Of a DNA stretch of 64,000 bases, positions 5,741 to 40,880 are shown in pieces (the stretch's first letter is position 1; each line of letters starts with the position of its first letter). The stretch spans positions 11,592-75,591 of the forward strand of contig CAZTRB010000005.1 of assembly GCA_964616485.1 (NCBI GenBank). The letters run 5' to 3'. Made by a program: the position numbers and the translations under genes. Source of the stretch: an uncultured Muribaculaceae bacterium (lineage in GTDB: Bacteria > Bacillota_I > Bacilli_A > RF39 > UBA660). The notes under the pieces are model-generated. The model was not told the origin of the DNA. It ran no database searches and saw only the letters and a program-made list of their open reading frames with translations.

Positions 5741-5772
5741 ATAAGAAAAACAGAGTAACATAAGTTACTCTG
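5741..5772 (-). terminator. rho-independent terminator of nifJ/PFOR
   Basis: Perfect 9-bp stem CAGAGTAAC/GTTACTCTG (5751-5772) with a 4-nt loop. It encloses the TAA stop and is followed by TTTTTCT on the minus strand. Confidence 0.75.
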
Positions 5773-8700
5773 TTATTTTTTTGTCTTCTTTTAAAGACTC
5801 ATAATGTTCGTATACTCTAATAGCTTCTCTCTTATTTATATCATAGAAGTCATCTTTCTTTTCAGGATTGACTTTATTAAGAGCTGCATACCTATTCTCT
5901 CCGTCTAAGAACTCTTCATATTTATCGAAGTCGGCTTTACTATCTAGAGAAAACTCTTCAGTCGTTGGGTTATATCTAAATATTGGGAAGTAACCTGATT
6001 CAGTTGCTTTCTTCTCTTCTTCGATACTAGTTCCCATTCCGGCTTTTATTCCTTGAACGATACATGGTGAATAAGCGATAATAAGTGAAGGTCCTTTGTG
6101 GTTCTTCGCTTCGTTGAAAGCCTTGATCGTCTGCATCATATTGGCACCTAGTGAAACTGTTGCAACATAGACATGAGGATAAGTCATAGCCATCTTAGCT
6201 AGATTCTTCTTGTGTGTCTCTTTACCCGAAGCAGCGAACTTAGCGATACCACCATACTTACTAGATTTAGACGCTTGTCCTCCAGTATTAGAATACATCT
6301 CGGTATCTAATACTAAGATATTAACGTCTTCATTACTTGCTAAGACGTGATCTAGACCGTTGTAACCGATGTCATAAGCCCAACCATCTCCTCCGATTAT
6401 CCAGAATGATTTGGTCTTGATAAAGTCTTTCTCTTCTAATAACTCTGGGATATTAAGACTGTCTACTATTTCATAAAGTCTCTTACTGTTTTCTAGATTA
6501 GTATCTTCTAGGTAAGAATTTACTACTTCTAAGTCATTATCATTTATCTTAGATAGGTTATCTCTTAAGATCATCTTAATCTTATCTTTGTGAATTACTT
6601 CAGATACTCTCATACCGAAACCAAACTCAGCATTGTCTTCAAACAATGAGTTAGCCCATGGTACTGAATAAGGAGTACTCGGTACGCTTCCACCATAAAT
6701 TGAAGAACATCCTGTAGCGTTAGCTATTACTAACTCTTCTCCGAATAATTGTGTTAACAATTTTATATATGGAGTCTCTCCACATCCAGCACAAGCGCCA
6801 GAATACTCGAATTTTGGTGTAGCGAACTGACTTCCCTTAACGGTATTAAGAGTCATCACTTGTTTTTCTGTAACGACGTTAAATAAATAATCCGTCTCTC
6901 TTAAAGTCTCTTCATCATTTATCTGTTCGATAGCCGTCATAACTAGAGCTTTCTCACCCTTCTTACCTGGACAAATGTTAACACATAGACCACAACCAGT
7001 ACACTGCTCGATATTAACACCGATTGCATATTTTAAGTTTTGATCTTTTATATTAGCATCGATTAATTTAGCTTTTAATGATTCTGGTGCATTCTCTACT
7101 TCCTCTTCATTAAGTAGGAAAGGTCTGATTACTCCATGAGGACAAACGAAAGCACACATATTACACATAATACAATTCTCTTCATTATAGACAGGTACTG
7201 TATCGGTAATATTTCTCTTCTCTTCTTTTGATCTTCCACCGACAAAACTACCATCGACAATTTTCTCAAATTCACTAACGGGAATAGAGTATCCTCTACG
7301 CTCATTTATAAGGTCAAAGATCGACTTTCCAACGAATGAAGATTTATTATCTTCGATGTCATCAAAACCAGAGAAATCGACTATTGTAAGTGTTTCTAAA
7401 GCTCTATCTATTGCCCGATTATTCTTCTCGATTACTTCAGTTCCTTTATTTTTAAATAAAGTCTCTAAGGCTTTTTTAATCTCTTTAAAAGCGATTTCAA
7501 AATCAATTAATTTACTTACTTTAAAGATAGCCGTAGCCATAATCGTATTAATCTTATTTCCAAGACCCACTTCATTAGATATCTTATTAGCATTAAGAGA
7601 ATAAACTTTAATATTCCTATTCTTAATAATAGCTCTATCTTTATTACTTAAAGCCTTAAATAATTCTTTATCATCTTTAAAAGTATTGACGATAAAAGTG
7701 CCGTTCTCGACAATATCATCTAACATATCAAACTTAGATAAATAACTATCTTTAGTACACACTACTAGACAAGGTTTGTTAACATAATATGTCGACTTAA
7801 TCGGCTTACTTGCAAAACGCATGTGACTCTTAGTAACACTACCAGACTTCTTCGAATCATACTCGAAGTAACCTTGAACATAAGAATCCGTATTATTACC
7901 GACAATCTTGATTATGTCTTTCGAAACACTGACCATTCCATCAGATCCAAAACCATAGATAACCACTTCTTTAGTCTCATTATCTACTGTTAAAGTGATC
8001 GGATCTAGACTCAAGTTAGTTAAGTCATCTTTTATACCGATCGTAAACCCATTAAACTTATCTTTTCTATCTAAGAACTTATAGACGGCATTTATCAGGC
8101 TAGGATCAGTATCTTTACTAGAAAGACCATATCTTCCTCCGACTACTTTAATGTTCTTACCTGTTTCCCTAATTACATTAGATATATCTAAATATAAAGG
8201 TTCGCTAGTCCCATGTTCTTTAGTACGACTTAAGACTGCTATATCAGTAACTGTATCTGGTAAAACATCTAATAAATATTTACTGCTAAACGGACGATAT
8301 AAGTGTACTTCGATTAGTCCAATCTTCTCACCCTTTAAACTATTGATAGTCTCTTTAATCGTCTCACAAATAGAACCCATAGCAACGATAATCTTCGTCG
8401 CGTCTTTTGCTCCATAATAATTAAACGGCTTATAGTCTCTTCCCGTAATAGCATTAATCTTTTTCATATACTCATTAACGATATCGGGAAGATTATCATA
8501 ATACTTATTTCTAGCTTCCGATAACTGGAAATAAATATCATCATTAGTATTAGTTCCTCTCGTTAAGTTATTAATACTTAAAGCTCTAGACCTAAACTCT
8601 TTTAAAGCGTCTTCATTTATTAATTCCTTTACTTTTTGAAAATCGATCACTTCTATCTTTTGTAACTCATGACTAGTCCTGAAACCATCAAAAGTATTTA

Positions 8701-9193
8701 TAAAAGGAACTTTACCTTCCATCGTAGAAAGATAACTAACGTTACTTAAATCCATTACTTCTTGAACAGAAGAGGATTGTAATATAGCAAACCCCGTCGT
8801 TCTAGCAGCATAGATATCTTGATGATCTCCTAAAATAGAAAGCGAATGACTCGCTAAAGAACGAGAAGCTACATTTATAACACAAGGAAATAACTGCCCT
8901 GCAATCTTATACATATTAGGAATCATCAACAAGAGTCCTTGAGAAGCCGTAAATGTCGTAGCTAAGATACCATTTTGAAGAGCACCATGAACCATAGCGA
9001 TAGCACCGGCTTCACTCTCCATCTCGACTACTTTTATTTTCGATCCCCAATAATTCTTCTTCCCTTCAGCACTCCAACTATCGACATTCTCAGCCATAGG
9101 TGATGCGGGTGTTATCGGATATATACCGGCTAGTTCAGAAAAATTATAAGCGACTAAACTACACGCTTCATTACCATCCATTATCTTATACAT
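5765..9193 (-). CDS. nifJ: pyruvate:ferredoxin (flavodoxin) oxidoreductase, single-chain
   Basis: N-terminus DGNEA...YPITPASPM. Two 4Fe-4S motifs (CIMCNMCAFVCPHG, CTGCGLCVNICPG). TPP motif GGDGWAYDIGYNGLDH. ATG at 9191-9193 is preceded by AAAGGAG; the track's first M is a TTG. Confidence 0.93.
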   Translation of the reverse strand: MYKIMDGNEACSLVAYNFSELAGIYPITPASPMAENVDSWSAEGKKNYWGSKIKVVEMESEAGAIAMVHGALQNGILATTFTASQGLLLMIPNMYKIAGQLFPCVINVASRSLASHSLSILGDHQDIYAARTTGFAILQSSSVQEVMDLSNVSYLSTMEGKVPFINTFDGFRTSHELQKIEVIDFQKVKELINEDALKEFRSRALSINNLTRGTNTNDDIYFQLSEARNKYYDNLPDIVNEYMKKINAITGRDYKPFNYYGAKDATKIIVAMGSICETIKETINSLKGEKIGLIEVHLYRPFSSKYLLDVLPDTVTDIAVLSRTKEHGTSEPLYLDISNVIRETGKNIKVVGGRYGLSSKDTDPSLINAVYKFLDRKDKFNGFTIGIKDDLTNLSLDPITLTVDNETKEVVIYGFGSDGMVSVSKDIIKIVGNNTDSYVQGYFEYDSKKSGSVTKSHMRFASKPIKSTYYVNKPCLVVCTKDSYLSKFDMLDDIVENGTFIVNTFKDDKELFKALSNKDRAIIKNRNIKVYSLNANKISNEVGLGNKINTIMATAIFKVSKLIDFEIAFKEIKKALETLFKNKGTEVIEKNNRAIDRALETLTIVDFSGFDDIEDNKSSFVGKSIFDLINERRGYSIPVSEFEKIVDGSFVGGRSKEEKRNITDTVPVYNEENCIMCNMCAFVCPHGVIRPFLLNEEEVENAPESLKAKLIDANIKDQNLKYAIGVNIEQCTGCGLCVNICPGKKGEKALVMTAIEQINDEETLRETDYLFNVVTEKQVMTLNTVKGSQFATPKFEYSGACAGCGETPYIKLLTQLFGEELVIANATGCSSIYGGSVPSTPYSVPWANSLFEDNAEFGFGMRVSEVIHKDKIKMILRDNLSKINDNDLEVVNSYLEDTNLENSKRLYEIVDSLNIPELLEEKDFIKTKSFWIIGGDGWAYDIGYNGLDHVLASNEDVNILVLDTEMYSNTGGQASKSSKYGGIAKFAASGKETHKKNLAKMAMTYPHVYVATVSLGANMMQTIKAFNEAKNHKGPSLIIAYSPCIVQGIKAGMGTSIEEEKKATESGYFPIFRYNPTTEEFSLDSKADFDKYEEFLDGENRYAALNKVNPEKKDDFYDINKREAIRVYEHYESLKEDKKITE

Positions 9194-10142
9194 CAATATT
9201 TCTCCTTTTTAATCCCTTACTCATCTCTTTAATAATGTATATAGGTCTTTTCTTTATCTCTGAATATACCTTCGATAAATAGGCTCCTATTATTCCTAAT
9301 GAGAATAGTTGAACTCCTCCGACGAAGAAGATTAACCAAAATACTAATAACACACTACTTATAGAGACATCTATTATTAAGTTTACCACAATTATAACGA
9401 ATAAGACAAACGCTACGAGAGAAAATAATAGACTCATTACAAAAGGAATCATCAAAGGAACTGTTGAAAAACCAATTATTCCCTCGAAAGCATACACTAA
9501 GAGATTCCAAAAACTCCACTTAGTATTACCTGCCACTCTCTCGACATTCTTATACTCTAACCACTTAGTCTTAAATCCAACGAAAGTAAACAGACCTTTA
9601 GAATAACGATTATACTCTCTCATCGTCAAGATTGAATCGACTACTTGTCTTCTCATCAATCTAAAGTCTCTAGCTCCATCGACCATCTCTGTCTTAGAAA
9701 TTTTATTTATCAACTTATAAAATCTTCTAGCAAAGAAACTCCTAATAGGTGGTTCTCCTTTTCTAGTCGTCCTCCTACAAGCTACGACATCGTAGTCCTC
9801 CTCTTTAATAAGACGATACATCTCTTCTAAAAGACTAGGTGGATCTTGTAAATCAGCATCAAGCGTCGCTACATAATCTCCAGTCGCATGTTCTAATCCC
9901 GCTAAAACAGCACCTTCTTTACCAAAGTTTCTAGAAAGAGAAATATACTCTACTCTCTTATCTTTCTTCTTTAATTCTTTAATATATTCTAAAGTATTAT
10001 CTTTAGAACAATCATTGACAAAGACAAATTCAAAATTAACTTTCTTTAAGTTTTCTGCTATCCTAGTTACTTCTTCATAAAAGTAAGGAAGCGACTCCTC
10101 TTCATTATAACAAGGAACGACTAACGATATTTTTTCTCTCAT
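9186..10142 (-). CDS. GT2 polyprenol-phosphate glycosyltransferase (GtrB/CsbB-like)
   Basis: VVPCYNEEESL...VNDCSKDNT...LSRNFGKEGA...DADLQDPP, plus two C-terminal TM helices. This is the classic GtrB/CsbB architecture. The gene overlaps the nifJ start by 8 nt. Confidence 0.85.
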   Translation of the reverse strand: MREKISLVVPCYNEEESLPYFYEEVTRIAENLKKVNFEFVFVNDCSKDNTLEYIKELKKKDKRVEYISLSRNFGKEGAVLAGLEHATGDYVATLDADLQDPPSLLEEMYRLIKEEDYDVVACRRTTRKGEPPIRSFFARRFYKLINKISKTEMVDGARDFRLMRRQVVDSILTMREYNRYSKGLFTFVGFKTKWLEYKNVERVAGNTKWSFWNLLVYAFEGIIGFSTVPLMIPFVMSLLFSLVAFVLFVIIVVNLIIDVSISSVLLVFWLIFFVGGVQLFSLGIIGAYLSKVYSEIKKRPIYIIKEMSKGLKRRNIDV

Positions 10143-10143
10143 A

Positions 10144-11592
10144 CTATTCTTTAATCCTTCTTTCTATTTTTTCAAAGATTCCCATATACCTAACATAAGC
10201 GTCTTTTTCCAAAGGAATCTCATAATACTTTTTAAGTTCTTTTAACTCTTCACTATTTATCGGGTTAAACTTATAGACTAGTTTTAAAGGGTTAGCTTTT
10301 ATCTCGATAGTATTTTGATTAGATTCTAACTGTTCTTTAATGTATTCTCCCCTAGTCTTCTCAAAATAAGATATTAACAAGAAAGAAGAGATATAATAAA
10401 TTACTAACAAGCTCGTTAATAAGACGACTCTCTTACTAACATTAAATTCTTTATTACTAACAAATATTGCTAAGGAACTAATTAAAAATAAAGTAAAGGC
10501 ATAATTATTACCAAAGTCCCACTCCTGTGATATAAGACTAAAAAGACTAACTGCAATCGAGAAGATAAATAAGACATTTATTAATCTCTTACTCTTTAAA
10601 TCTTTACTATAATAGTGAAGACTTCTAATCAATAAATAAAAATATAATAAGTAATAAAAAGCATAATACCAATTCTCTACTGCAAAGAAACCGTTATAAC
10701 GATTAATTACTAAAGTTAAAGATACTGGCGAATAGAAAGAGAAATTATAAATAAAAGAAAAATACAAGATGATATTAAATAAGACGATAAGTATTCTAGA
10801 GTAAATCCCTTTAAGTCTTTCCCCTAAATAAAAGTTAATCGGTATCGTCGACAATATTATTAATAATATATTTCTAGAAAAAGTATTTTCGATAAAATCG
10901 GGAATACTATTAAAGACATAGTTTATATCGAGAATAAAAATACTCTCTTTAAAGAAACTAAAGACGAATAATAAAGTCAAGAGATGAAAGATTACTACTA
11001 AGAGATACTTTTTATTATAATTACATATTAAGTAAAATATATTTGCTATAACAAAAGAAATAGCGATGAAGATAGACGAGGTAATAACATAACTACCGAG
11101 AAGTATCATCATGACATAATCACGATAGTTTCTCTCTTTATCTCTTATACTAAATAGACTATAGAAATATATAAAACCTAGTAATATCGGTATCGTATAA
11201 CTAAAAGCACCACTTACAGAGACGTAATTATAAGCAAACATATCGACGCTGACTAAAAGCATTAATAAAAATGTTATCACATACATAAACTTGTTCTTTA
11301 CTATTCCTAATAGAGTGTTGGTCCTAAAGACAAACATCGAAGTAACTATCGCTATTATCAGATTAAACCAAACTTTATTATAAGAGAATATATTAATAAA
11401 AAAACCACTTATTACTCTTCCGTCTAAAATAGAAGAATTTTCTAAATTATAAGCGATCCCCTCTTTACCTAAAGAAAAAAAAGCCCAATCTATTCCACCT
11501 AATGGAGATAAAAAAGCCACTATCAAAAAGAAGAAAAAGACATATGTCGTTAACTTATATTTATAATCTATCGTTTTAATTCTATCATTCAT
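10144..11592 (-). CDS. polytopic membrane protein (482 aa, more than 10 predicted TM helices); GT-C-like glycosyltransferase role inferred
   Basis: Almost entirely hydrophobic segments with a soluble C-terminal tail. It lies 1 nt from the GtrB-like GT2, the usual partner arrangement (GtrB+GtrC, CsbB+YfhO). The function is inferred from context only. Confidence 0.55.
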   Translation of the reverse strand: MNDRIKTIDYKYKLTTYVFFFFLIVAFLSPLGGIDWAFFSLGKEGIAYNLENSSILDGRVISGFFINIFSYNKVWFNLIIAIVTSMFVFRTNTLLGIVKNKFMYVITFLLMLLVSVDMFAYNYVSVSGAFSYTIPILLGFIYFYSLFSIRDKERNYRDYVMMILLGSYVITSSIFIAISFVIANIFYLICNYNKKYLLVVIFHLLTLLFVFSFFKESIFILDINYVFNSIPDFIENTFSRNILLIILSTIPINFYLGERLKGIYSRILIVLFNIILYFSFIYNFSFYSPVSLTLVINRYNGFFAVENWYYAFYYLLYFYLLIRSLHYYSKDLKSKRLINVLFIFSIAVSLFSLISQEWDFGNNYAFTLFLISSLAIFVSNKEFNVSKRVVLLTSLLVIYYISSFLLISYFEKTRGEYIKEQLESNQNTIEIKANPLKLVYKFNPINSEELKELKKYYEIPLEKDAYVRYMGIFEKIERRIKE

Positions 11593-11600
11593 AAAGTCTC

Positions 11601-12080
11601 CTATAACTTATCTATGTAATCCTCTATTAATTTTACCATATTTTTAGTATTACTCTCATACTTTTTAGGTTTAAAAGTCTTAGCTTTTTCTAAAGTCTTA
11701 GAAAGTTTATTAAGATCTTTAAGAGGAAGTATATATTTCTTAGAACTTAATTGTTCGATAATCTCTAATTGATGATCGTTATCATGCTCTTTAAACTTCT
11801 TTAGTCTAGGAGCAGCTATTACAACTTTATTATATTCTAATCCCTGTAAGATAGAACCTACTCCACCATGAGTAATTAATAAACTACAATCTTTAATCAT
11901 CTTAGCAAACTCTTCACGAGAAATAAAATCAAAGATTTTCATATTAGGACTCTCATACTTAGTATGACCTGCTTGGACAATTACTTCTTCTTTAATAGTT
12001 CCTTTCTTTATCTCTCTATCTATTTGCTCTAATAAACGTTTAAACTCTTTATCTTGAGTTCCAAGAGTAACTAATATCAT
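11601..12080 (-). CDS. Alg13-like glycosyltransferase catalytic subunit (Glyco_tran_28_C-type)
   Basis: MILVTLGTQDKEFKRL...ITHGGVGSI... is the typical Alg13/PssE/Cps14G pattern. The ATG overlaps the upstream stop as TAATG. The track's GTG start at 12092 is an alternative. Confidence 0.8.
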   Translation of the reverse strand: MILVTLGTQDKEFKRLLEQIDREIKKGTIKEEVIVQAGHTKYESPNMKIFDFISREEFAKMIKDCSLLITHGGVGSILQGLEYNKVVIAAPRLKKFKEHDNDHQLEIIEQLSSKKYILPLKDLNKLSKTLEKAKTFKPKKYESNTKNMVKLIEDYIDKL

Positions 12081-12550
12081 TAGTAAATCCACCCCCCATA
12101 AACCGCTTTAGGATAAAGTTTTAACATACTCTCCCATTGAACGATAAATAAATCGGCAAAGAGATAGATTAACCTTCCCGTAATCGTCTTACTCTTACTA
12201 TTAGCAAGCGTCTCGATATAAATAATCTTACTACCGAATATTTTACCGACACAACACATTGGTCCTGCCGTATGAGCACCAGTAGTTATGATTACTTTAG
12301 GTCTAATCTTAAAGTAAAGAAAGAGACTCTTAAAAGAATTATATATTAACTTAAAGGGATAAGTTAATAAATGAGCCTTAGTTCCATAGACTAAATACTT
12401 TACTTTTCCCGGATATTTATCTTTTAAAGTCATATTAGATTTAGTCTTTTCTGTTATTATATAGTGATCATATTTCTCAAACATCGAAGACAACTTCATC
12501 ATCTCAGATAAATGACCACCAGTAGAAGATATAAATAAAACCTTTTTCAT
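12080..12550 (-). CDS. Alg14-like glycosyltransferase membrane/accessory subunit
   Basis: MKKVLFISSTGGHLSEM...TTGAHTAGP... is the Alg14/PssD/Cps14F-type pattern. It is translationally coupled to the Alg13-like gene. Confidence 0.8.
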   Translation of the reverse strand: MKKVLFISSTGGHLSEMMKLSSMFEKYDHYIITEKTKSNMTLKDKYPGKVKYLVYGTKAHLLTYPFKLIYNSFKSLFLYFKIRPKVIITTGAHTAGPMCCVGKIFGSKIIYIETLANSKSKTITGRLIYLFADLFIVQWESMLKLYPKAVYGGWIY

Positions 12551-12557
12551 AAACCAC

Positions 12558-13772
12558 CTATTTTAGTATTTTAAACCAATCTTTCTCTATATTTTTAGCT
12601 AAGTACTTTTGAGATATTTTAAGATTCTCTTTACTTAGTTTTTCTCTATACTTATTATCTTTTAAAATAAGAACGATTTTTTCTTTTAAAAGGCTTAAGT
12701 CTCTATTAGGTATCAAAACATCACTATTATCTTCTAAGACTTCACATATTCCCTTAGCACTATCGAAACCAATAACAGGAAGTCCATAACTAGCAGCTTC
12801 GATTACGACTAAACCGAAAGACTCCGAGAATGATGTAGTTACGAAAAGAGAACTATCTAACATATACTTTTCTATCTTATCTTTAGATAAAAATCCGAGT
12901 AATTCGACATTATCATTTAAAGATAATTTCTTAATTTGTTTCTCTAAATTACTTCTTTCAGACCCATCACCGATTAGGTAAAGCTTAATATTAGGTATAT
13001 TTTCTCTAACCAAAGATAATACTTCTAAAAGGTCAGAGTGTCCTTTTTCTAGAGATAATCTTCCGACATTGATTATGTTATTTGTCTTTAATAGAGATTT
13101 TTTCTTCGGCAATTCGTCTAAGACATTGGGTATATAAAGACACTCTACATTCGTCTTATCTTTATAAAAGTCTCTGAGTTCTCTAGATACTAAGATAAAA
13201 TAAGAAAATCCTTTAATAGAAGATACTAACTTTCTAACATATTTTTTATCGTTATTATGATAGTTGTGATCGGTAACAATTTTTACAATATGTCTATTAC
13301 CATAAGTAGATACTAATCTATTATGGAAGGTCCTAGTAGTAATTACATACTTGCTATTTATTTTAATAATAGCATTAATATTTAAAAGACTTTTTTTAAA
13401 TAAGAGAACAAGAGCTATATATGCTTGTTTTAATATACCAAAGATATTCTTATTAGTTAATTCTTTTTTAAACTCTTCTCTATTAGGTTTAGAATCAATT
13501 AAATATTTTATCTTAATCTTCTTATCAAAATAAAACGCGGGTTGTTCTAGCAACTTATAAGTAGTTATAATCTCTATCTCAAACTTTTTATCTAGCATCT
13601 TACAAAGAGAAGACAAGTACTTTTCGATACCACCATATCCTAAATGAAGAGCTAATATCGTTATCTTATTTTCTTTTAGTTTTCTCTTGTTATATTTTAA
13701 AATTAAAAACACTAAAAATAAGATAATAACAAAAGACAATAATACTAATAACAGTTGCAATATATCACACAC
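12558..13772 (-). CDS. GT4-family glycosyltransferase with N-terminal TM helix
   Basis: C-terminal Glycos_transf_1 signature GRLSLEKG...SFSESFGLVVIEAASYGLPVI (EX7E). GTG start with a weak RBS, so the start is uncertain. Confidence 0.8.
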   Translation of the reverse strand: MCDILQLLLVLLSFVIILFLVFLILKYNKRKLKENKITILALHLGYGGIEKYLSSLCKMLDKKFEIEIITTYKLLEQPAFYFDKKIKIKYLIDSKPNREEFKKELTNKNIFGILKQAYIALVLLFKKSLLNINAIIKINSKYVITTRTFHNRLVSTYGNRHIVKIVTDHNYHNNDKKYVRKLVSSIKGFSYFILVSRELRDFYKDKTNVECLYIPNVLDELPKKKSLLKTNNIINVGRLSLEKGHSDLLEVLSLVRENIPNIKLYLIGDGSERSNLEKQIKKLSLNDNVELLGFLSKDKIEKYMLDSSLFVTTSFSESFGLVVIEAASYGLPVIGFDSAKGICEVLEDNSDVLIPNRDLSLLKEKIVLILKDNKYREKLSKENLKISQKYLAKNIEKDWFKILK

Positions 13773-13814
13773 TTTCTAAGTATAGTTTATCACTTTTAGA
13801 AGAATAATAAAATA

Positions 13815-13847
13815 GCAAGAAAAAAGATATCTTTTTCAAGATATCTT
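13815..13847 (-). terminator. rho-independent terminator of the giant pilin-like gene
   Basis: 10-bp stem AAGATATCTT/AAGATATCTT (13824-13847) with a 4-nt loop, overlapping the stop. It is followed on the minus strand by TTTTTCTT. Confidence 0.7.
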
Positions 13848-16800
13848 ATCCCCAATTTTCACAACCACAAGCTGCTGTTCTACAAGAATTATTTCCTCCT
13901 ACACAAGTACTATAAGTGTATAGACAATTATTCCATCCACATGCACTATGTTGACAATAATAGTATCCGGCACATCCACAGCAATCATTATAACAGGTTG
14001 CAGCTTCCTCACCAGAAACACAACATGTTGTCGAAGTTTTATACCATGTTTGGCCACCCGAACTAGGTTTGCTACTTGCACACTTAGTTCCGCACCCATA
14101 ACCTCCTGTGTTTTGGTAACATTCATAGATATTTCCTTTAGTTTTACAATATGTTCCGCAACAAGAGTAACTAGTACATCTTTTATTTCCAGTACATCCG
14201 CATCCGGCAGTATAACAAGAATTATATCCTCCAACACAAACGGACGGGTTACCTGTTAAACAAGAATTCCATCCACAATTAGCATGTTGACAACTCTTAT
14301 TGGTAACACAACTCGATGTTATAGAACAAGTTCCTGTATTACCCGCTCCATCTGTAACCGTGTATGTCTTTGTACCTTTAACATTTGAATCATTATATGT
14401 AGCTGGAGATACTCCACTTGCATTATCAGAAGTTGTAACTTTTACGGTTATTCCATTAGCTCCATTCGCTGTTTTAACAGCAGTACAAGTAGGATTAACT
14501 GTATCTCTTTTTATCGTAAATACATTAGATGCAGCAGATGCATTACCTGCATTGTCAATTGATCTTACATAGAAATTCCAATTCCCATCCCAGTTTATCG
14601 TCCATGGATTTGACATTGCTGTCCAATTTGCAGCATCATGACTATACTGATAACTAGCAATTCCAGAACCAGTTCCGTCCGAAGATGATGCAGTTATTAC
14701 AACATTAGATTTTGTCCAAGTGCCTGAAGTATAAGAACCTAGATTGATCGTTGGTTTTGAAGGTTTTGTTGCATCTCTCTTTATTGTTACGACATTTGAA
14801 TTATCACTTATGTTACCAGATTTATCTATAGCCCTTACATAAACGTTCGTAGATATATCTGAACTAATTGTCCATGGATTCGACATCGTCGTCCATCCCG
14901 ACGTCCCATTAGTACTATATTCATATCTATCTAAGTTAGTATCCGATGAACTCGCTGTTATGACAATATTTTGATTTGACCATGTATTAGATGTATATGT
15001 AGTACCATCTGCTTTTTTCAAGGTTAAAGTTGGTTTCGACGGTTTCGTCGCATCTCTTTTAACATTAAAGACGTTTGACACATCACTTATATTACCAGCA
15101 CCATCAGTAGACCTTACATAGTAATTACTTTCGACATCTGTACTAATTGTCCATGGATTTGCCATATTTGTCCATCCTGAAGTTCCATTAACACTATATT
15201 CATATTTACTTATTCCTGAAATATTATCAGTTGAACTTGCCGTTACGACTACATTGCCAGAGGTCCATGTCCCTGAAGTATAAGAACCTAAATTGATCGT
15301 CGGTTTCGATGGTTTAGTAGCATCCCTTTTGATAACTACGGCATTAGATACATCACTAACATTTCCTGAGGAATCGATTGCTCTTACATAGATGTTTGTC
15401 GAAGTATCCCAGTTAATCGTCCATGGATTTGTCATAGCCATCCATCCCGATGTTCCGGTCGTACTATATTGATATCCAGCTAAGTTATCATCAGTTGAAC
15501 TTGCTGTAATGATTATATTTTGATTTGACCATGTATTAGATGTATAAGTAGAATTGTCTGCTTTCTTCATTGTCAATGTTGGTTTTGATGGTTTCGTCGC
15601 ATCTCTTCTAACAATAAATGGATTTGAATTATCACTTACGTTACCAGCACCATCAGTCGATCTGACATAGTAAGTTTTATCGGTATCGAAGTTTATCGTC
15701 CATGGATTTGACATCGTCGTCCATCCTGAAGTTCCATTGTTACTATATTCGTATTTGCTTATTCCCGAAATATTATCAGTTGAACTTGCCGTTACGACGA
15801 CATTACCAGAAGTCCATGTACCAGAAGTATACGAACCTAGATTAATCGTCGGCTTCGATGGTTTAGTACCATCTATTTTTACCGTTTGGTTGTTCGGACA
15901 AGTAACACAGTTTCCTGCTCTATCACAAACCTCGCCCGGTCCAGCCGTCGTCGTATTTATATCACTAGTATAAGGTTTAGTAATTGTCGTATTTACACAA
16001 CCACTACCACTATCACTACAAGTACCAATTATATTTACAGTCGTCTTACTCCATGCAGAACTTCCACCACTACTTACACAAGTTGGTTTCGTCGTATCGA
16101 TCGTATCGACGACTACCGCTTTATTAGTAACATGTCCAGCTTGGTCCTTAACCCACACATAATATGTACCATTATCAGAAGCTATATTTGGAACACCAAT
16201 TCCAAAACTAGTTCTTGCCGATATAGCGGTAAATGTCGGTTGTGTCGTCGAACTCTTATTTATACCGTAACCGATTATTCCTGAATTAGTATCTGTTCCG
16301 GTAAATACTATCGTTCCGTTAAGTCCGTCTTGACCAGTATCGATTATCGTCGAGTACGCTACATCCCAACTTACTGAAGTACCAGAACCCGTCAAGTAAA
16401 CGTGTCCGAAAGTCGAGAACGTTCCCGAACTACCCGCTTTTTGAATATAGATATATTCTGCCCAATCTCCAGTTCCAGCTTGTGGAGTGATCCAGTAGAC
16501 GCTTGAACCTGTACCGGTAGAATTAGAAGCTCTTTGAATAGTATACCCAACTGGTATCTTTGCAATTATTCTATGAGCATATACAGCATTAGCTCTCGAA
16601 GTTACAGTTTGAACATAACCTCCTAATCCAGGAGAACTGACACCATTTGTCGTTATTCTCATAACGTATGAACCATATGGGTTAGATTGAGCTACTCTAG
16701 CGTGAGTAACAGTACCATTTCCACTATTATTATATACGCTAAAGTTATTTGTCCCAGAAGCAAACGTCGGATCTTTGAATAACGGAGTCCCTGATATTGC

Positions 16801-18897: not shown

Positions 18898-18931
18898 AAT
18901 AAAGCTCCTTGTATTATCTTTTATATATAAC

Positions 18932-18960
18932 ATTTTAATATCTTTATACATAATAGTCAA
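18932..18960 (-). promoter_or_regulatory. sigma-A-type promoter of the giant pilin-like gene
   Basis: Complement: TTGACT (18955-18960), 17 nt spacer, TAAAAT (18932-18937). About 35 nt upstream of the ATG. Confidence 0.5.
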
Positions 18961-19043
18961 GAAAGATTTAGTCGTTAAATCTTTTAGTTTTTTGTAAAAA
19001 GTTGTCTAATTCCTTATAAATTATGTAAAACTTTCCTAGCAAG

Positions 19044-19072
19044 TAGACACTATATACAATATATTATATAAT
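19044..19072 (+). promoter_or_regulatory. sigma-A-type promoter of the glucosaminidase-cohesin-LCP operon
   Basis: TAGACA (19044-19049), 17 nt spacer, TATAAT (19067-19072). About 33 nt upstream of ATG 19106, with RBS GGAGGTG. Confidence 0.5.
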
Positions 19073-19105
19073 TATATTACTAATAATGGCATGGAGGTGT
19101 AACAA

Positions 19106-21121
19106 ATGAAGAGATTTTTATTCGTGATTCTTTTGATATTGCTTCTTTTTAATAGTGGAACAGCACATGCAGAAATTATTAAGACTGGTCGGGCTATAGC
19201 CGATGTTGGGCTTAGAATTAGAGCTACTCCCTCTACTAGCGGAACACAATTAGGAACGATACCCTATGGAACGATAGTTAGAATCATCGGTGAAGCGAAT
19301 GGTTCGGGATGTAACGATCCTTGGTTTCAAGTAATTTACTCTACTGGTAATAGTAATATAAACGGTTATTCTTGTTCTACTTATATAACGGAAATTACGG
19401 AGTATGATACTGAAGAGAATACGCCTACAACACCACCAGTAAATAGCGAGGACTTCGAAGCCTACTTAACTTCACAAGGATTCCCAGAAAGCTACAAAGT
19501 CAAACTAAGAATTTTACACGAACAACATCCTAATTGGATATTTGTCGGTATAAAAGTAAGAGAGTCTTGGCAAACGTCTTTAAATCTTCAAGGCGAAGAT
19601 GGAAGAAGTACATTAAATGTTAATGCGGCAAGAAAGGCTTTGGGGCAAGAGGGATATTTATCGACTGCAGCGGGACACTATAACTATGAGACTGACACTT
19701 TTATTCCTAAAGATGGTACTTATTGGTTTCAAGCTAACTCAGATGCTATTGGATATTACCTTGACCCAAGAAACTTCATGGACGAGAAAAATGTTTTCAT
19801 GTTCGAAAGTCTTTTACAAAACGATGCTATTCATACTAAATCAGTAGTCGACGGGATCTTGTCGAGTGACTTCATGAAACAATATTCTAATCATTTCATG
19901 AAAGGTGCAAGAGACTACAACGTTTCTGCTACGCACTTAGCATCACTATCTAGACAAGAAGTAGGAATTACTAACGGTAACATTGTTACTAACGGAAAAG
20001 CCGGAGTATTATCAGACGGAGTTAACTATAACGGTTACTATAACTTTTTTAATATCGGAGCATCATCATCGGGAGATCCGAAGTTAAAATCGTTACAAAG
20101 CGCTAAAGCTCGCGGCTGGAATTCACCTGAGAAATCAATCGTTGGTGGAGCGGCTTTTATATCTAGTGGTTATATTAATGCCGGACAATACACGGCTTAT
20201 CTTCAAAAGTTTAACGTCGATCCTAATGCTACTAAAGGAATATGGCATCAGTATATGACTAACATAGCGGCATTATCTTCGCCGGCAATTACGACATATA
20301 ACTCATATAATAATCTCGGTTTCATAAACCATTCATTTATATTCTCGATTCCAATATTTACTAATATGCCAGAAAGCACTTCGTTACCTCCCTTAGGTAA
20401 CCCAAATAACTGGCTAAAAGAAATAAAGATAAATGGTATCGCTTTATCTAGTTTCTACGGTGGTACCACTAATTACACCATCGATATTCCTTACGAGGAA
20501 GAGATTACAGTAGAGGCTAAAAAAGTAAATAGTAACGCTACTGTATCAGGAACTGGAACAAAAGCCTTAACGGAAGACAAAACCACTTTAACGATTAAAG
20601 TCACTGCTCAAAACGGAAGCGTTAAAAACTATACGGTAACAGTTAATCGTGGGATAAAAGACGATCCTAACTTAGAGATAGATCTTCTATTAAAAGATGT
20701 CTTAACTGATAGCAAATACAAATACGATAGTAAAAATCTTTGGGGAATAACTCTAGGAACTAGCGTTAAGAGTCTTACTAGTAAAATAAAAGGAAAATAT
20801 AAAACAGTAAGTGTAAATATAAAAAATAAAGACGGCAATACTAAAACAGACGGTGTCATAGTTACAGGAGATAAAGTAACGATAACGACTAAACAAGAAT
20901 CTACTACTATCGAAGTAATAATCTTTGGTGATACTAATGGAGACGGATACATCTCGGCAATCGACATCTTAAGCGCTCAAAAACATATCCTTGGATATAC
21001 TACTCTTTTAGGAACTAGTTTCAAAGCGGCAGACATAAATAAAGACGGTGTCATATCAGCTTATGACTTACTACAATTTCAAAAACACGTCTTAGGTTAT
21101 ACTAATATAAGCCAATCATAG
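19106..21121 (+). CDS. secreted peptidoglycan N-acetylglucosaminidase (GH73-like) with SH3b, cadherin-like beta-sandwich and C-terminal dockerin
   Basis: Sec signal ending AHA|E. SH3b-like GLRIRATPSTSGTQLGTIPYGTIVRIIGE. Glucosaminidase-like core (YLDPRNF...HLASLSRQEVG...YNFFNIGA). Cadherin-like module at 20413-20652. Dockerin duplicated F-hand: GDTNGDGYISAIDILSAQKHILG and AADINKDGVISAYDLLQFQKHVLG (20927-21105). Confidence 0.85.
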   Translation: MKRFLFVILLILLLFNSGTAHAEIIKTGRAIADVGLRIRATPSTSGTQLGTIPYGTIVRIIGEANGSGCNDPWFQVIYSTGNSNINGYSCSTYITEITEYDTEENTPTTPPVNSEDFEAYLTSQGFPESYKVKLRILHEQHPNWIFVGIKVRESWQTSLNLQGEDGRSTLNVNAARKALGQEGYLSTAAGHYNYETDTFIPKDGTYWFQANSDAIGYYLDPRNFMDEKNVFMFESLLQNDAIHTKSVVDGILSSDFMKQYSNHFMKGARDYNVSATHLASLSRQEVGITNGNIVTNGKAGVLSDGVNYNGYYNFFNIGASSSGDPKLKSLQSAKARGWNSPEKSIVGGAAFISSGYINAGQYTAYLQKFNVDPNATKGIWHQYMTNIAALSSPAITTYNSYNNLGFINHSFIFSIPIFTNMPESTSLPPLGNPNNWLKEIKINGIALSSFYGGTTNYTIDIPYEEEITVEAKKVNSNATVSGTGTKALTEDKTTLTIKVTAQNGSVKNYTVTVNRGIKDDPNLEIDLLLKDVLTDSKYKYDSKNLWGITLGTSVKSLTSKIKGKYKTVSVNIKNKDGNTKTDGVIVTGDKVTITTKQESTTIEVIIFGDTNGDGYISAIDILSAQKHILGYTTLLGTSFKAADINKDGVISAYDLLQFQKHVLGYTNISQS

Positions 21122-21130
21122 GAGGACTTT

Positions 21131-22546
21131 ATGAAAAAAATCTTTAAACCATTTACAATGGTTTTCCTTTTTACAGTGATGTTTTTGTTTAATAATAACG
21201 TCTTGGCAGCTAACTTAAATGTCTCGATAACCTCGAGTACTAGTAGAGCGGTAGTTGGTAACAATATTACTTATACGGTTAGAGTGTCTTCTAATGCTAA
21301 ATTTGGTAATATTCATTATAGATTAGAATATGACACTTCTAAGTTAACTCATGTAAGTGGAACACTAAATAATTTTGATTTAAATGTTATCGATAAATAT
21401 TCTGCTACTTACACTTTTACTTTTAGAGCAAAAGCAAGTGGTAATGCTAGAGTAACGTTCGTAATCAACGAAGCCTTAGAATTAAATAACAATTCTTTTA
21501 ATTATAATACTAGAACCAATAAAGATATAACGATCATAACTCAACAACAATTAGAAGCTAGCTATAGTAAAAACAACTACCTATCATCTTTAAAAATAGA
21601 TAATTTTGAAATGACACCGGCTTTTAATAAAGATACTTTAGAATACTCGATAGAATTAGAAAACGATGTTAAATCAATAAATATTAGCGGTACTAAAGCA
21701 GATTCAACAGCATCAGTCGAAGGTTTGGGTGCACATGAATTAATAGAAGGACCAAATAAAATAAATATAAAAGTTACTGCCCAAAACGGTGCCTCTAGAA
21801 CATATACGATAAATGCAACGGTAAAAGAATTAAATCCCATTATCGTAACTGTCGACGGCAAAGAATATAATGTCGTTAGAAAAAAAGACCTAATAAAAAA
21901 ACCTAATAGCAAATACGAAGAGACGATTATACAAATAAATGAAGAAGATGTCCCAGCTTTCATAAACGAGACGACTAAAGTAACATTAATCGGGCTTAGA
22001 GATGAAGAGGACAACATTTCTTTATTTAGTGTTAAAAATGATACGTATATTCCTTACCAAGAATTCGCTTTTAGTAGTATAATATTTACGGAAGAAAATT
22101 TAGACGATCTTCCTAAAGGTTATACTAAAACTAAATTAAAACTCGAAGAAGTAGAAATAGACGCTTATCAAGATAACTCTAACTTAAATTTCTACCTAAT
22201 AAAAGGAGTGAACATTGAAACGGGAATAACTTCCCTATATCAATATGATAGTAAAGAAAACACTCTTCAAATATATAATGATTCATTAGCTAAACAAAAT
22301 AAGGAATTAACTAATAAGAATAATATTTATCTTTATACTATAATTGGTCTAATAGCACTCATAGCTATATCTTCCGGAACGATATTAGTAAAGACTTTAA
22401 AAAATGAAAAACCTAAAATAAAAAAAGAAGAGAAGACCGACAAAAAAGTCAAAGAAAAAGTAGAGGAACCGAAAGAACCTATCATAGAAGAAGAGAGTCT
22501 AACAAAACAAATAAAGAAAATGAAAAAAAATAAAAAACAATCTTAA
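21131..22546 (+). CDS. membrane-anchored surface protein with cohesin-like N-terminal domain and cadherin-like beta-sandwich
   Basis: Sec signal (VLA|AN). Residues ~27-135 (21209-21536) read VGNNITYTVRVSSNAKFGNIHYRLEYDTSKLTHVSGT, which fits the cohesin pattern. Cadherin-like module at about 21580-21825. C-terminal TM helix (IYLYTIIGLIALIAISSGTILV) and a Lys/Glu-rich tail. Confidence 0.7.
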   Translation: MKKIFKPFTMVFLFTVMFLFNNNVLAANLNVSITSSTSRAVVGNNITYTVRVSSNAKFGNIHYRLEYDTSKLTHVSGTLNNFDLNVIDKYSATYTFTFRAKASGNARVTFVINEALELNNNSFNYNTRTNKDITIITQQQLEASYSKNNYLSSLKIDNFEMTPAFNKDTLEYSIELENDVKSINISGTKADSTASVEGLGAHELIEGPNKINIKVTAQNGASRTYTINATVKELNPIIVTVDGKEYNVVRKKDLIKKPNSKYEETIIQINEEDVPAFINETTKVTLIGLRDEEDNISLFSVKNDTYIPYQEFAFSSIIFTEENLDDLPKGYTKTKLKLEEVEIDAYQDNSNLNFYLIKGVNIETGITSLYQYDSKENTLQIYNDSLAKQNKELTNKNNIYLYTIIGLIALIAISSGTILVKTLKNEKPKIKKEEKTDKKVKEKVEEPKEPIIEEESLTKQIKKMKKNKKQS

Positions 22547-22561
22547 TATACTGGAGGAATT

Positions 22562-24667
22562 ATGAAAAAGAAAAAGATCAAATACCAAAATATATTCACA
22601 ATACTTTGTATCTTAAGCAGCTTATATCTAATCCAATCTATCTACTTATTTTCACAAATAGAAACAGTTATTAGATACTCTGTAATTGGTATTTTAGTTC
22701 TTTTCGACTTCTTTATATTAATTAAGATGTTTTTCTTAAAGACTAAAAAAACTATTATATATATTATAGTCTTAGTCTTTTTTAGTGGAATATATATATT
22801 CTTAGGATACAATTTAAATAGAATATACTCTTATTTTACTAACTTAAATAAGACGATTACTTATTCGACTAGTTTAGTTACCTTAAAAAGTACTAAAGAT
22901 GTCGATCTAATAACACTTAAGAATGCTAATATAGGTCTTATCGATGATCCGACTTCTGAAGATGGACACATCTTAGCACAAGAGATAATAAAGAAAGAGA
23001 GTTTATCTAAAAACAATAATATTATCTATAGGCATTCATATACTGAACTTATATTAGATTTATATGATAAAGACTTAGACTATATTTTTCTTCCTAGTTC
23101 TTATGTCGATATCTTTAGTACGATCGAAGGTCTTGAAGATATAGAAGATAAAATTAAGACTATTCTAACGACAGAGATGGAAAAGACTAAAGAAGAGGCA
23201 CAACTATTAGGAGATCCTAAGAATATAGATGAACCATTCACGATGTTATTAATAGGTATTGATTCAACGGCTGATGGTATTCAAAATGCCGACTCATTTA
23301 ATGGAGATTCTCTTATGGTACTTACTTTTAATCCTAAGACGATGACTGCTACGATGTTAAGTATACCTAGAGATACGTATGTTCCAATAGCATGCTTTCC
23401 AAATAAAATAGAAAATAAGATAACTCATTCTGCTTCTCGTGGTACAAGTTGTGTTATAAATACTATTCAAAACTTATTGGATATAAAAATAGACTATTAT
23501 ATGAAGATTAACTTTACTGGTCTAGTCGAACTAGTCGATGCCGTCGGTGGAGTCGAAGTCGATGTTCCTTATAGTTTTTGTGAACAAAATAGTAAGAGAA
23601 AATTCGGTAATAGTACTATCTATGTAAAAGAAGGTTTAAGGACACTTAATGGTGAAGAGGCCTTAGCATTATCTAGAAATAGAAAGAATAATTATGAATA
23701 TTGTTCTAAAGAATGGACTAAGGGAAATAGAAGTGACTTTGTAAGAGCAGAGAACCAACAAAAAGTAGTTCAAGGAATATTAAATAAAGTAAAAGGTTAT
23801 ACTTCTATTAACAAAATAGAAGAGTTATTAAAAATAGTCTCTAAAAACTTAGATACTAATATGAGTGAGAAGACGATTTTCTCATTCTATAATATTGCAA
23901 AGGATGTCATGATATCATCGTCTAATTCTGATATACTATCTATTCAAAGATTAGAGATAGTCGGATGGGGACAAACGATATACGATGAGACATCTAAGTT
24001 ACAGTTGTGGAATTATGTTCCAAATAAGAGAAGTACCGAAGATGTAAAAGAAGCTATTAAAATAAATTTAGGACTGAAAAAACATGAGTTAATCAAGACT
24101 TTCACTTATTCTTGGAAAGAAGAATATACTCAAAAGATTCCAGGTAAAGGGCCTTATAGTATATATACTACTTATGACTTGCTAAAAGACTTTACTAACA
24201 TGAATATAACGGATGTCGAGCTATGGGCTGAAAAAAACGACATTACTTTAGTCATAGAAGAAGTAGAAAAGGTCGGTTACAAAAATGGTACAGTCGTTAA
24301 TCAAGAGTATCCAGTTAATAAGAGATTAGATTTAATACCCGATAGAACATTAAAAATAGAAGTAGTCAAGAATAAAGATACTAAAATAGACTGTTTAAAA
24401 GACGAGGAAAACATTATTTGTCTAATACCTGACTTTATCGGTAAAACTAAGAAAGACGTAGCTCTTTGGGGAAATAAGTTCTCTAATCTAGTAGATGTTA
24501 AATATGTAGAAGTGGAGTCTGAAGAAGAAGAGAATACGATAATAGATCAAACGATTAAAGGTATTACGATAAAAGAATTACTTGAGAATAAAGAGAGTAT
24601 CACTTTTACTATCGTTAAGAAAAAAGAAATAATACCACCTATCGAAGAAGAAATGGAAGAAGAATAA
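22562..24667 (+). CDS. LytR-CpsA-Psr (LCP) family cell-wall glycopolymer ligase with a long C-terminal extension
   Basis: N-terminal TM helices. LCP core LLIGIDS...GDSLMVLTFNPKT...SIPRDTYV...INFTGLVELVDAVGGVEVDV...GEEALALSRNR. The roughly 200 C-terminal residues are PASTA-like or unassigned. Confidence 0.85.
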   Translation: MKKKKIKYQNIFTILCILSSLYLIQSIYLFSQIETVIRYSVIGILVLFDFFILIKMFFLKTKKTIIYIIVLVFFSGIYIFLGYNLNRIYSYFTNLNKTITYSTSLVTLKSTKDVDLITLKNANIGLIDDPTSEDGHILAQEIIKKESLSKNNNIIYRHSYTELILDLYDKDLDYIFLPSSYVDIFSTIEGLEDIEDKIKTILTTEMEKTKEEAQLLGDPKNIDEPFTMLLIGIDSTADGIQNADSFNGDSLMVLTFNPKTMTATMLSIPRDTYVPIACFPNKIENKITHSASRGTSCVINTIQNLLDIKIDYYMKINFTGLVELVDAVGGVEVDVPYSFCEQNSKRKFGNSTIYVKEGLRTLNGEEALALSRNRKNNYEYCSKEWTKGNRSDFVRAENQQKVVQGILNKVKGYTSINKIEELLKIVSKNLDTNMSEKTIFSFYNIAKDVMISSSNSDILSIQRLEIVGWGQTIYDETSKLQLWNYVPNKRSTEDVKEAIKINLGLKKHELIKTFTYSWKEEYTQKIPGKGPYSIYTTYDLLKDFTNMNITDVELWAEKNDITLVIEEVEKVGYKNGTVVNQEYPVNKRLDLIPDRTLKIEVVKNKDTKIDCLKDEENIICLIPDFIGKTKKDVALWGNKFSNLVDVKYVEVESEEEENTIIDQTIKGITIKELLENKESITFTIVKKKEIIPPIEEEMEEE

Positions 24668-24729: not shown

Positions 24730-24758
24730 TTGACAATTAATATACTATATAGTATAAT
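24730..24758 (+). promoter_or_regulatory. consensus sigma-A promoter of rnjA
   Basis: TTGACA (24730-24735), 17 nt spacer, TATAAT (24753-24758). Confidence 0.6.
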
Positions 24759-24796
24759 CACCTAGTTAGTTCTTTAAAAATATGAAAGGAGAAATT

Positions 24797-39059: not shown

Positions 39060-39073
39060 CTTGACCTCCTATT

Positions 39074-40826: not shown

Positions 40827-40880
40827 ATAATCCTCCTATAATAAATTTTAATATATATGGCTTTTATTGTCAATTATTCG

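Follow-up and report, generated by a model that had tools for sequence, protein, structure and literature searches.

Introduction

Restraint of autolysins is a long-standing question in Gram-positive bacteria, where membrane anchors, partner proteins (SpdC, FtsEX and ActH) and exclusion by teichoic acids are known to hold these enzymes in check. The glucosaminidase SagB, for instance, has its own N-terminal membrane anchor. In Staphylococcus aureus, SagB and SpdC form a peptidoglycan release complex (bioRxiv 10.1101/2020.05.21.109470; PDB 6fxp, 6u0o). Here we analyzed a 64-kb stretch (the window) of contig CAZTRB010000005.1 from an uncultured bacterium, in which the interval 9186-24667 encodes glycosyltransferases, a giant pilin-like protein, a dockerin-bearing hydrolase of glycoside hydrolase family 73 (GH73), a cohesin membrane anchor and a LytR-CpsA-Psr (LCP) ligase. 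A preliminary description of this DNA had tentatively grouped these genes as a single co-regulated surface system. Our data suggest that the interval is probably a composite of three units and not one machine, with a wall-maintenance operon and, beside it, a movable giant gene.

The hydrolase and its anchor resemble the SagB-SpdC complex in that a GH73 glucosaminidase is predicted to be kept at the membrane by a partner and to act on the cell's own glycan strands. However, SpdC is polytopic and CAAX-protease-like, whereas the partner here is a single-pass cohesin stalk and the enzyme a secreted dockerin protein. With a cleavable signal peptide and a dockerin on the hydrolase, and no SpdC-like gene adjacent, the pair falls outside the SagB-SpdC system. 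Cellulosome scaffoldins such as OlpA, OlpC and SdbA of C. thermocellum are anchored by SLH domains or by sortase and not by a C-terminal transmembrane helix. The locus also differs from cellulosomes in having no multi-cohesin scaffoldin, no carbohydrate-binding module (CBM) and no plant-wall enzyme, and does not belong among them. In the NagJ, NagH and sialidase complexes of C. perfringens (PDB 2w1n, 2vo8, 2o4e) secreted enzymes bind one another, whereas here the cohesin is carried on a membrane stalk, one dockerin enzyme is encoded directly upstream of it and the predicted target is peptidoglycan. We found no description of a dockerin-bearing GH73 or other peptidoglycan hydrolase with a cohesin membrane anchor in the open-access literature.

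Glycopolymer loci with LCP enzymes (Cps2A, TagT/U/V, LytR) are similar to this one in that the ligase lies beside glycosyltransferases, including PssD/PssE (Cps14F/G). They differ in that the ligase here shares an operon with an autolysin and its anchor and has a PASTA-like C-terminus, and in that no initiating transferase or flippase is recognizable in the glycosyltransferase cluster. For the giant protein the nearest design is that of the modular type IV pilins, for instance PilB and PilC of Streptococcus sanguinis, which has been reported to be widespread and diverse (Raynaud et al. 2021, PMC8179133). Shared with these are a class III signal peptide and a pilin helix onto which non-pilin modules are grafted, with adhesion as the predicted function. 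The giant is nevertheless 1,683 residues long, in a family that reaches 3,792, compared with 860 in the survey's most extreme example, and it differs further in its Cys-containing N-module of ~600 residues outside Pfam, its multi-copy family and the lack of nearby type IV pilus genes.

All parts of the locus come from known families. What appears to be new is the use of a cohesin-dockerin pair as an autolysin tether across a large uncultured gut lineage, together with the length of the pilin-like proteins and the number of their gene copies; this family stretches the size range of modular pilins ~4-fold. If the tether is real, cohesin-dockerin binding would gain a core physiological role beyond polysaccharide degradation. 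The pair is conserved in hundreds of relatives known from human and animal gut metagenomes and could therefore be a lineage marker and a possible target.

Gene content of the locus

The genes of the interval are as follows.

9186-10142 (-): GT2 glycosyltransferase of the polyprenyl-phosphate sugar type, PgfS/ArnC/GtrB-like (Pfam, NCBIfam)
10144-11592 (-): polytopic membrane protein, 482 residues (open reading frame map)
11601-12092 (-): PssE/Cps14G-type glycosyltransferase subunit, Alg13-like, Glyco_tran_28_C (NCBIfam, Pfam)
12080-12550 (-): PssD/Cps14F-type glycosyltransferase subunit, Alg14-like (NCBIfam, Pfam)
12558-13772 (-): generic GT4 glycosyltransferase (Pfam)
13846-18960 (-): giant open reading frame; likely gene 13846-18897, 1,683 residues
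19106-21121 (+): SH3-GH73-dockerin hydrolase, 671 residues (Pfam, NCBIfam, PDB)
21131-22546 (+): cohesin membrane anchor, 471 residues (family, profile and fold evidence, AF2 model)
22562-24667 (+): LCP ligase, 701 residues (Pfam, NCBIfam)

The coordinates of the ten genes in the preliminary description and of its 208-bp divergent spacer are all borne out by our open reading frame map. Our domain searches also agree with its call of a wall-cutting enzyme with a dedicated anchor, an LCP ligase and glycosyltransferases. Successive gaps of only 9 and 15 nt separate the hydrolase, anchor and LCP genes.

A predicted glucosaminidase and its cohesin anchor

The hydrolase is composed of a signal peptide, an SH3_3 domain, a GH73 domain (residues ~193-409), a Cadherin-like spacer and a type I dockerin, and we predict that it is a secreted peptidoglycan N-acetylglucosaminidase. 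When aligned with SagB, the Glu of the ExG motif, which we take to be the catalytic residue of GH73, is matched (...RQEVG in the hydrolase, ...LLETG in SagB). Searches of the PDB with the GH73 domain returned SagB (6fxp, 2.2e-16), Atl (2.7e-14), AtlE (2.2e-10) and the AcpCD part of C. perfringens Acp (1.4e-9). SagB was also the best NCBIfam match (5.6e-22), with 78 bits lying below the cutoff of 425, and the Pfam Glucosaminidase model gave no match to the hydrolase at E<=0.01. The dockerin was found with Dockerin_1 (2.9e-12, 47 bits against a cutoff of 22.9) and with PDB dockerins down to 9.7e-6. It contains two calcium-loop repeats, DTNGDGYISAID and DINKDGVISAYD, which are the only ones in the window. 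Thousands of matches to the hydrolase were found; of the best 120, 118 carry a dockerin, as do all eight orthologs that we inspected.

The anchor is a predicted type I membrane protein. A full-length AlphaFold2 (AF2) model of it, built with 57 homologs (pLDDT 85), has a signal peptide, four beta-sandwich domains and a long C-terminal helix. An N-terminal cohesin (24-142) is followed by a Cadherin-like domain, two further beta-sandwich domains, a helix (384-424) that holds the transmembrane segment and a disordered cytoplasmic tail rich in Lys and Glu, which makes the cohesin the membrane-distal domain in the model. The Pfam Cohesin model (PF00963) had no match to the anchor of the window at E<=0.05, where only the Cadherin-like domain was seen. 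PF00963 was matched by 16 of the 57 family members (best 9e-8), and a profile of the domain searched against the PDB gave cohesins as 14 of its 24 matches (best 1.2e-4). With family-level homology and a nine-stranded jelly-roll fold, the N-terminal domain of the anchor is a cohesin, supported at family, profile and fold level. At least 583 homologs of the anchor were found. The window contains exactly one dockerin and one cohesin, and we infer that the dockerin of the hydrolase would bind the neighboring cohesin.

The Cadherin-like beta-sandwich module of the hydrolase (434-515; approximately 20405-20650) is homologous to that of the anchor (148-233; approximately 21572-21829), with 35-41% identity in several genomes, which suggests domain exchange between the partners.

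The third gene of this strand encodes a predicted LCP ligase, an enzyme type that joins glycopolymers to peptidoglycan. Its LCP domain (PF03816) was matched at 1.7e-38 (132.6 bits against a cutoff of 24.6), and NCBIfam gave TIGR00350 (115.9 bits against a cutoff of 62.3) and a CpsA-like model (2.5e-44). N-terminal transmembrane segments precede the catalytic domain, and a weak PASTA-like domain lies at the C-terminus.

Our best reading of 19106-24667 is that of a wall-maintenance operon, conserved across the lineage, with the hydrolase-anchor pair as its core. We hypothesize that the secreted GH73 enzyme would dock via its dockerin onto the cohesin that caps the membrane stalk, whose four beta-sandwich domains would set the enzyme at a fixed distance from the membrane. 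The tethered enzyme would then trim or release the cell's own glycan strands locally rather than diffuse off, much like membrane-bound SagB of S. aureus with another tether. The LCP ligase, co-transcribed in this clade, would presumably attach the product of the divergent glycosyltransferase operon to peptidoglycan. A fixed-length cohesin-dockerin stalk, if true, would add a simple and testable mechanism to those by which autolysins are restrained.

It is also conceivable that the GH73 enzyme faces outward, as a surface glycosidase against the walls of neighboring bacteria or against host or dietary glycans in the manner of the C. perfringens complexes. The best structural matches of the anchor's cohesin are the NagJ and sialidase cohesins of that species, the cohesin is membrane-distal, and the organism is a gut bacterium going by its relatives' labels. 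However, the catalytic domain is nearest to the staphylococcal housekeeping glucosaminidases SagB, Atl and AtlE, the SH3_3 wall-binding domain points to the cell's own wall, and the pair is apparently single-copy and near-universal in the lineage. Its context is also always one of envelope and division genes (variable glycosyltransferase clusters, often LCP, once the dcw cluster with murG-ftsZ; PBP1, RecU and DivIVA nearby). It would therefore seem very unlikely that the enzyme works outward rather than on the wall of its own cell.

Conservation of the gene neighborhood

Related loci were sampled in two ways, via the anchor (six loci) and via the N-terminal module of the giant protein (eight loci). 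N_methyl denotes the prepilin domain.

L082 (via anchor): two or three giants within 10 kb, divergent from hydrolase-anchor-LCP-RNase J
L169 (via anchor): a 911-residue N_methyl giant of another subfamily within 10 kb, beyond the membrane-protein gene; GT2 and GT4 on the hydrolase strand
L083 (via anchor): no giant; PFOR-serpin-membrane protein-PssE-PssD-GT4, divergent from hydrolase-anchor-LCP-RNase J
L170 (via anchor): no giant, no LCP; TagF-like, GT2, O-antigen ligase, GT4, GT2 and deacetylase genes, divergent from hydrolase-anchor-RNase J
L171 (via anchor): no giant, no LCP; PssE-PssD and an O-antigen-ligase/GT4 fusion, divergent from hydrolase-anchor-RNase J
L084 (via anchor, more distant): no giant, no LCP; hydrolase-anchor, then murG-murB-ftsQ-ftsA-ftsZ
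L166 (via N-module): giant linked to the operon, divergent layout identical to that of the window
L002/L085 (via N-module): giant linked to the operon, between LCP and RNase J; hydrolase divergent from the glycosyltransferase operon
L165 (via N-module; best homolog, 48%): unlinked; UDG and a two-component system
L001 and L167 (via N-module): unlinked; RNB, giants and an ABC exporter pair
L168 (via N-module): unlinked; between rpoC and rpsL
L086 and L089 (via N-module): unlinked; none of the neighbors

A giant is present in two of the six loci sampled through the anchor, and the operon in two of the eight sampled through the giant. The hydrolase and anchor genes, by comparison, are adjacent in all nine loci examined, with the anchor directly downstream. 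LCP is part of the operon in L002, L082, L083, L166 and L169 and missing from it in L084, L170 and L171. With RNase J identities of 79-83% to the window, the loci are about equally related to it. The sample does not point to an obligatory partnership, as the pair is kept at loci with no giant and giants occur away from the pair. Further, the pair is single-copy as far as seen, whereas there are several giants per genome.

These data bear on the preliminary description in two ways. A complete lack of linkage between giant homologs and their neighbors here would have spoken against it outright, and this is not what we see, as linkage occurs in L166, L082 and L002/L085, and in L169 an N_methyl giant of another subfamily lies beside the glycosyltransferase genes. 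Its picture of one surface system holds for the gene identities, the dedicated anchor and the operon linkage in some genomes. It finds no support for a co-regulated, dedicated apparatus: L083, L170, L171 and L084 retain the hydrolase and anchor genes with their promoter but have no giant, most sampled giant homologs lie in unrelated contexts (rpoC/rpsL; RNB and ABC exporters; UDG and a two-component system), and the giant of the window has a terminator of its own (13820-13847) and a closest homolog that is unlinked.

Such an apparatus, in which the tethered GH73 enzyme would open the wall for a giant fiber, the glycosyltransferases and LCP ligase would decorate or fix it and divergent promoters would co-regulate the whole, does have points in its favor. 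The identical divergent layout recurs in L166 and L082. GH73 and other lytic enzymes dedicated to the passage of appendages exist, for example the C-terminal domain of FlgJ, and LCP enzymes are able to glycosylate proteins in Actinomyces. Against it stand, besides the separate persistence of pair and giant, the unlinked majority of giant homologs, the terminator and the difference in copy number, the varying positions of the operon-side giants, which are not each other's closest relatives. The position around the operon in the window, L166 and L082 differs from that in L002 and again from that in L169. As the closest homolog, P0005 (48% identity), is unlinked, the giants at the operon (37-41%) do not form a positional ortholog group. 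The hydrolase gene of L083 diverges from the glycosyltransferase operon instead of from a giant, so the arrangement in the window looks like an insertion. We therefore consider a single integrated apparatus improbable and favor the composite of three units. Under this composite the locus would be ordinary cell-envelope synteny plus an inserted paralog, in which the gene calls of the preliminary description are right and its single-system grouping is wrong.

Several observations weigh against the composite. Of the six genomes with an LCP-containing operon, five have an N_methyl giant no more than 10 kb away, at four different positions, a count that also favors an integrated apparatus. The sample is small, its six genomes are related to each other, and two of them entered it by way of the giant. 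Random placement would give ~10% by a guess that assumes ~10 giant copies in a ~1.8-Mb genome, an assumption and not a measurement. The five of six observed is higher than this guess, and some real linkage of giant and operon, functional or recombinational, may exist. Further, the pairing of cohesin and dockerin is deduced from adjacency, one-to-one stoichiometry and conservation; the 482-residue membrane protein, with no Pfam match even at E<=5 and no NCBIfam match, cannot be assigned to a family; and with regard to pilin processing, neither a prepilin peptidase nor type IV assembly genes were found in the 64-kb window. The proximity of giants to the operon points to a regional hotspot or a mild preference for cell-envelope loci.

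Promoters and terminators

The regulatory elements around the giant gene and the hydrolase operon are as follows.

13820-13847 (-): intrinsic-terminator-like hairpin at the giant stop codon (sequence, RNA fold)
18960-18932 (-): promoter-like site of the giant gene, TTGACT-17-TAAAAT (10/12 hexamer match)
18993-19008 (+): direct-repeat-like motif, TGTAAA-N4-TGTCTA (alignment of orthologous upstream regions)
19044-19072 (+): promoter of the hydrolase operon, TAGACA-17-TATAAT (11/12 match, conservation)
24730-24758 (+): RNase J promoter, TTGACA-17-TATAAT (12/12 match to the sigma-70 consensus)

Two divergent promoters had been proposed for the spacer, and both sequences are present at those positions, the plus-strand site being corroborated by conservation and the minus-strand site lacking such support. 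In this DNA, which has ~30% GC, we counted 82 promoter-like hexamer pairs against 74.7 +/- 8.3 expected from shuffled sequence. Because hexamer pairs occur at chance frequency in such AT-rich DNA, a single match is weak evidence. An alignment of the ~140 nt that precede each of nine orthologous hydrolase genes (window, L002, L082, L083, L084, L166, L169, L170 and L171) revealed that in all nine the TATAAT of the plus-strand site is invariant and its -35 element T(A/G)GAC conserved. As this holds whatever gene lies upstream, the promoter is that of the hydrolase operon and was in place before the giant. Other giants have AT-rich upstream regions of their own with TATAAT-like boxes.

Upstream of the hydrolase promoter, a motif like TGTAAA-N4-TGTCTA is recognizable in most of the nine regions, possibly as the binding site of a regulator or as an additional promoter element. 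In form it recalls the response-regulator sites through which autolysin genes are controlled. There is no signal of a regulon in the window, where we found one exact copy and two-mismatch copies at chance level. An Rfam scan gave no riboswitch or leader in the divergent spacer, its sole match in the window being an RNase P RNA elsewhere.

The giant terminator has a 10-bp palindromic stem, AAGATATCTT, a GAAA loop and a T-run, and overlaps the giant stop codon. It was missed by our consensus scan because the scan demands G+C-rich stems and this stem is AT-rich, a bias that probably leaves too few terminators called across this genome. With this terminator at its stop codon the giant is a self-contained unit between the glycosyltransferase operon and the hydrolase operon, and at the other end RNase J's own promoter marks the 3' limit of the hydrolase-anchor-LCP unit.

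The giant pilin-like protein

The start of the giant is best placed at M22 (18897), where AAGGAG lies 7-8 nt upstream of the ATG, and the 208-bp spacer accordingly runs from 18898 to 19105. The N-terminus has a class III signal peptide, with the leader MRKK...KKKKG|FTLIE and the prepilin sequence MRKKTVSKILEKAKKKKG|FTLIEVIAVIVIIAILAIITVP, followed by a hydrophobic helix. N_methyl was matched in Pfam at 5.8e-7 and as TIGR02532 with 27.8 bits (cutoff 16.3), and the residues F+1, L+3 and E+5 (F19, L21, E23) are invariant across 33 sequences of the giant family. The sequence that follows the pilin helix, where type IV pilins have a globular alpha-beta fold, gave no Pfam match. The conserved Cys-containing N-module of ~600 residues is followed by Ig-like domains, with a Cys-bearing Ig-like unit in three copies, by five OmpL47/Big_7-type repeats of ~91 residues each and by a Cys-rich C-terminus in which the last ~155 residues contain 30 Cys. 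Neither a wall-sorting signal nor a dockerin was found in the giant. With N_methyl, Big_7/OmpL47-type repeats, Ig-like domains and a Cys-rich end, it has the make-up of the modular pilins and is, by its predicted domains, a modular type IV pilin-like protein.

The repeats are 63-90% identical at the DNA level with a period of 549 nt, the reason why Tandem Repeats Finder reported nothing on this gene. They have diverged enough that a recent repeat expansion is ruled out. A CBM4/9-like lectin module at residues ~700-930 was considered and dropped, there being no PDB or Pfam match even at E 5-10. Although the GC content of the gene exceeds that of its neighbors, GC at third codon positions (GC3, 0.235) is the same; the surplus lies in second codon positions and therefore reflects an amino-acid composition rich in Thr, Ser and Gly. 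With GC3 equal to that of the neighbors, the gene gives no sign of recent foreign origin. Residues ~1530-1683 (13846-14310, -) contain the internal repeat CQH..CGWN.CL....CVGG.NSC.TA.CGC, and homologs have faint matches to TNFR/ephrin-receptor-like Cys-rich domains. Thirty Cys would be unusual in an extracellular protein of a strict anaerobe.

The N-module (~520-700 residues) is common to ~35 proteins with 35-48% identity, in which a set of its cysteines and the prepilin residues are invariant. An exhaustive profile search placed it at the N-terminus in ~65 of the best 150 representative clusters. C-termini of the family are divergent, some having Flg_new or TSP1-like domains, among others. 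Single metagenome-assembled genomes (MAGs) yielded several N_methyl giants, and arrays of two or three genes occur. We also infer how the giant might work: it would be cleaved at G|F by a prepilin peptidase encoded elsewhere, after which the N-terminal helix would either join a type IV filament or do no more than fix the protein in the membrane, with the long stretch of Ig repeats and Cys-rich sequence serving as an adhesin. These uncultured gut bacteria with reduced genomes probably draw most of their adhesins from this family.

Giants were never found beside type IV pilus genes in the loci examined, and the window has no type IV pilus, competence-pilus or sortase genes and no second prepilin motif or second dockerin. 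One possibility, which we put forward tentatively, is that the multi-copy giants (~1,000 to 3,800 residues) use the prepilin helix as a cleavable membrane anchor and not for a filament. Equally tentatively, the cohesin stalk, co-transcribed with LCP, may act as a ruler that restricts the GH73 enzyme to a shell at fixed distance from the membrane, an undescribed way of controlling a housekeeping glucosaminidase.

Genes of the giant family occur in unexpected surroundings. In L168 (10001-14434) a 1,477-residue member lies between rpoC and rpsL, within a gene order that is among the best conserved in bacteria. N_methyl genes, giant or small, also flank an ABC_membrane+ABC_tran exporter pair in L001 (12945-16548), L167 (18678-22287) and L065 (3598-7498), which amounts to two independent contexts, L001 and L167 being syntenic. 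No type IV pilus ATPase was found beside the N_methyl genes of the MAG locus L065, where the matches to a Walker-motif regular expression proved on checking to be the ABC exporters.

The glycosyltransferase operon

The genes at 9186-13772 form a glycosyltransferase operon of variable content that would build a wall glycopolymer. PssE (NCBIfam NF041548, 151.5 bits against a cutoff of 120; Pfam Glyco_tran_28_C, 1.4e-13) and PssD (NF041549, 171.4 bits against a cutoff of 110; Pfam Alg14, 3.5e-18) are encoded by adjacent genes with a 13-nt overlap, as in split glycosyltransferases. The GT4 enzyme (Pfam Glycos_transf_1, 3.5e-40) has only 29-36% identity to those of L083, L169 and L171, its gene being variable between genomes. 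Orthologs of the 482-residue membrane protein with 38-43% identity are found in L002, L083 and L169, where the gene is conserved beside PssD/PssE. Judged by this position, the protein may be a polymerase or transferase that takes part in glycopolymer synthesis. A Wzy/O-antigen-ligase identity was rejected after comparison by hhalign with the O-antigen_lig proteins of L170 and L171 (probability 1.6%).

The GT2 enzyme was matched by Pfam Glycos_transf_2 (1.5e-40), by NCBIfam PgfS (1e-93) and by an ArnC-type model (9.6e-51), and a gene of this polyprenyl-phosphate type is specific to the window among the loci compared. In L083 a 581-residue serpin gene (2367-4112) takes its place between the membrane-protein gene and PFOR.

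The match to PgfS, together with a giant that contains 13% Thr and 11.5% Ser, raises the question of whether the cassette O-glycosylates protein. In such a scheme, modeled on Pgf of Streptococcus mutans or on pilin glycosylation by PilO/PglL, the GT2 enzyme would make a polyprenyl-phosphate sugar that the 482-residue protein transfers extracellularly onto the Thr/Ser-rich giant. GT2 and giant are both here and both missing in L083, and GT2 matches lie near N_methyl genes at several other loci. However, GT2 genes are very common, which makes such nearness weak evidence, and the PgfS score of 313.9 bits is under the cutoff of 500; enzymes of the ArnC/GtrB type modify lipids and wall polymers as well. 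The polytopic protein lies beside PssD/PssE in L083, L169 and L002 irrespective of GT2 or giant and has no Wzy_C, PglL or GT-C signature. With PgfS below its cutoff and no epimerase gene present, the locus does not qualify as a Pgf system, in which PgfS has PgfM1, PgfE and PgfM2 as partners. We give protein O-glycosylation little credence, and synthesis of a wall glycopolymer is the role that we favor for this operon.

Surroundings of the locus

On either side the interval is bordered by the following genes.

5765-9196 (-): PFOR gene (open reading frame map)
24782-26470 (+): RNase J gene

The rest of the window is housekeeping in nature (RecG, RNase Y, RecA, RNase P RNA, RecU, PBP1, DnaD, Der, acetate kinase, GatAB and others). 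Class B RNase P RNA is typical of low-GC Firmicutes. The RNase P RNA of the window (30444-30787, -) is of this class (296 bits) and fits a Bacilli-type host, and the relatives have database labels such as uncultured Bacilli or Tenericutes, Mycoplasma sp. CAG:956 and Candidatus Onthousia. Finally, a five-gene run at 38019-41948 (-) encodes a DUF5305 protein, an unusually long S26 signal-peptidase-like protein of 395 residues and the products of three open reading frames without a Pfam match, and could be a fiber or matrix operon of the SipW/TasA type.

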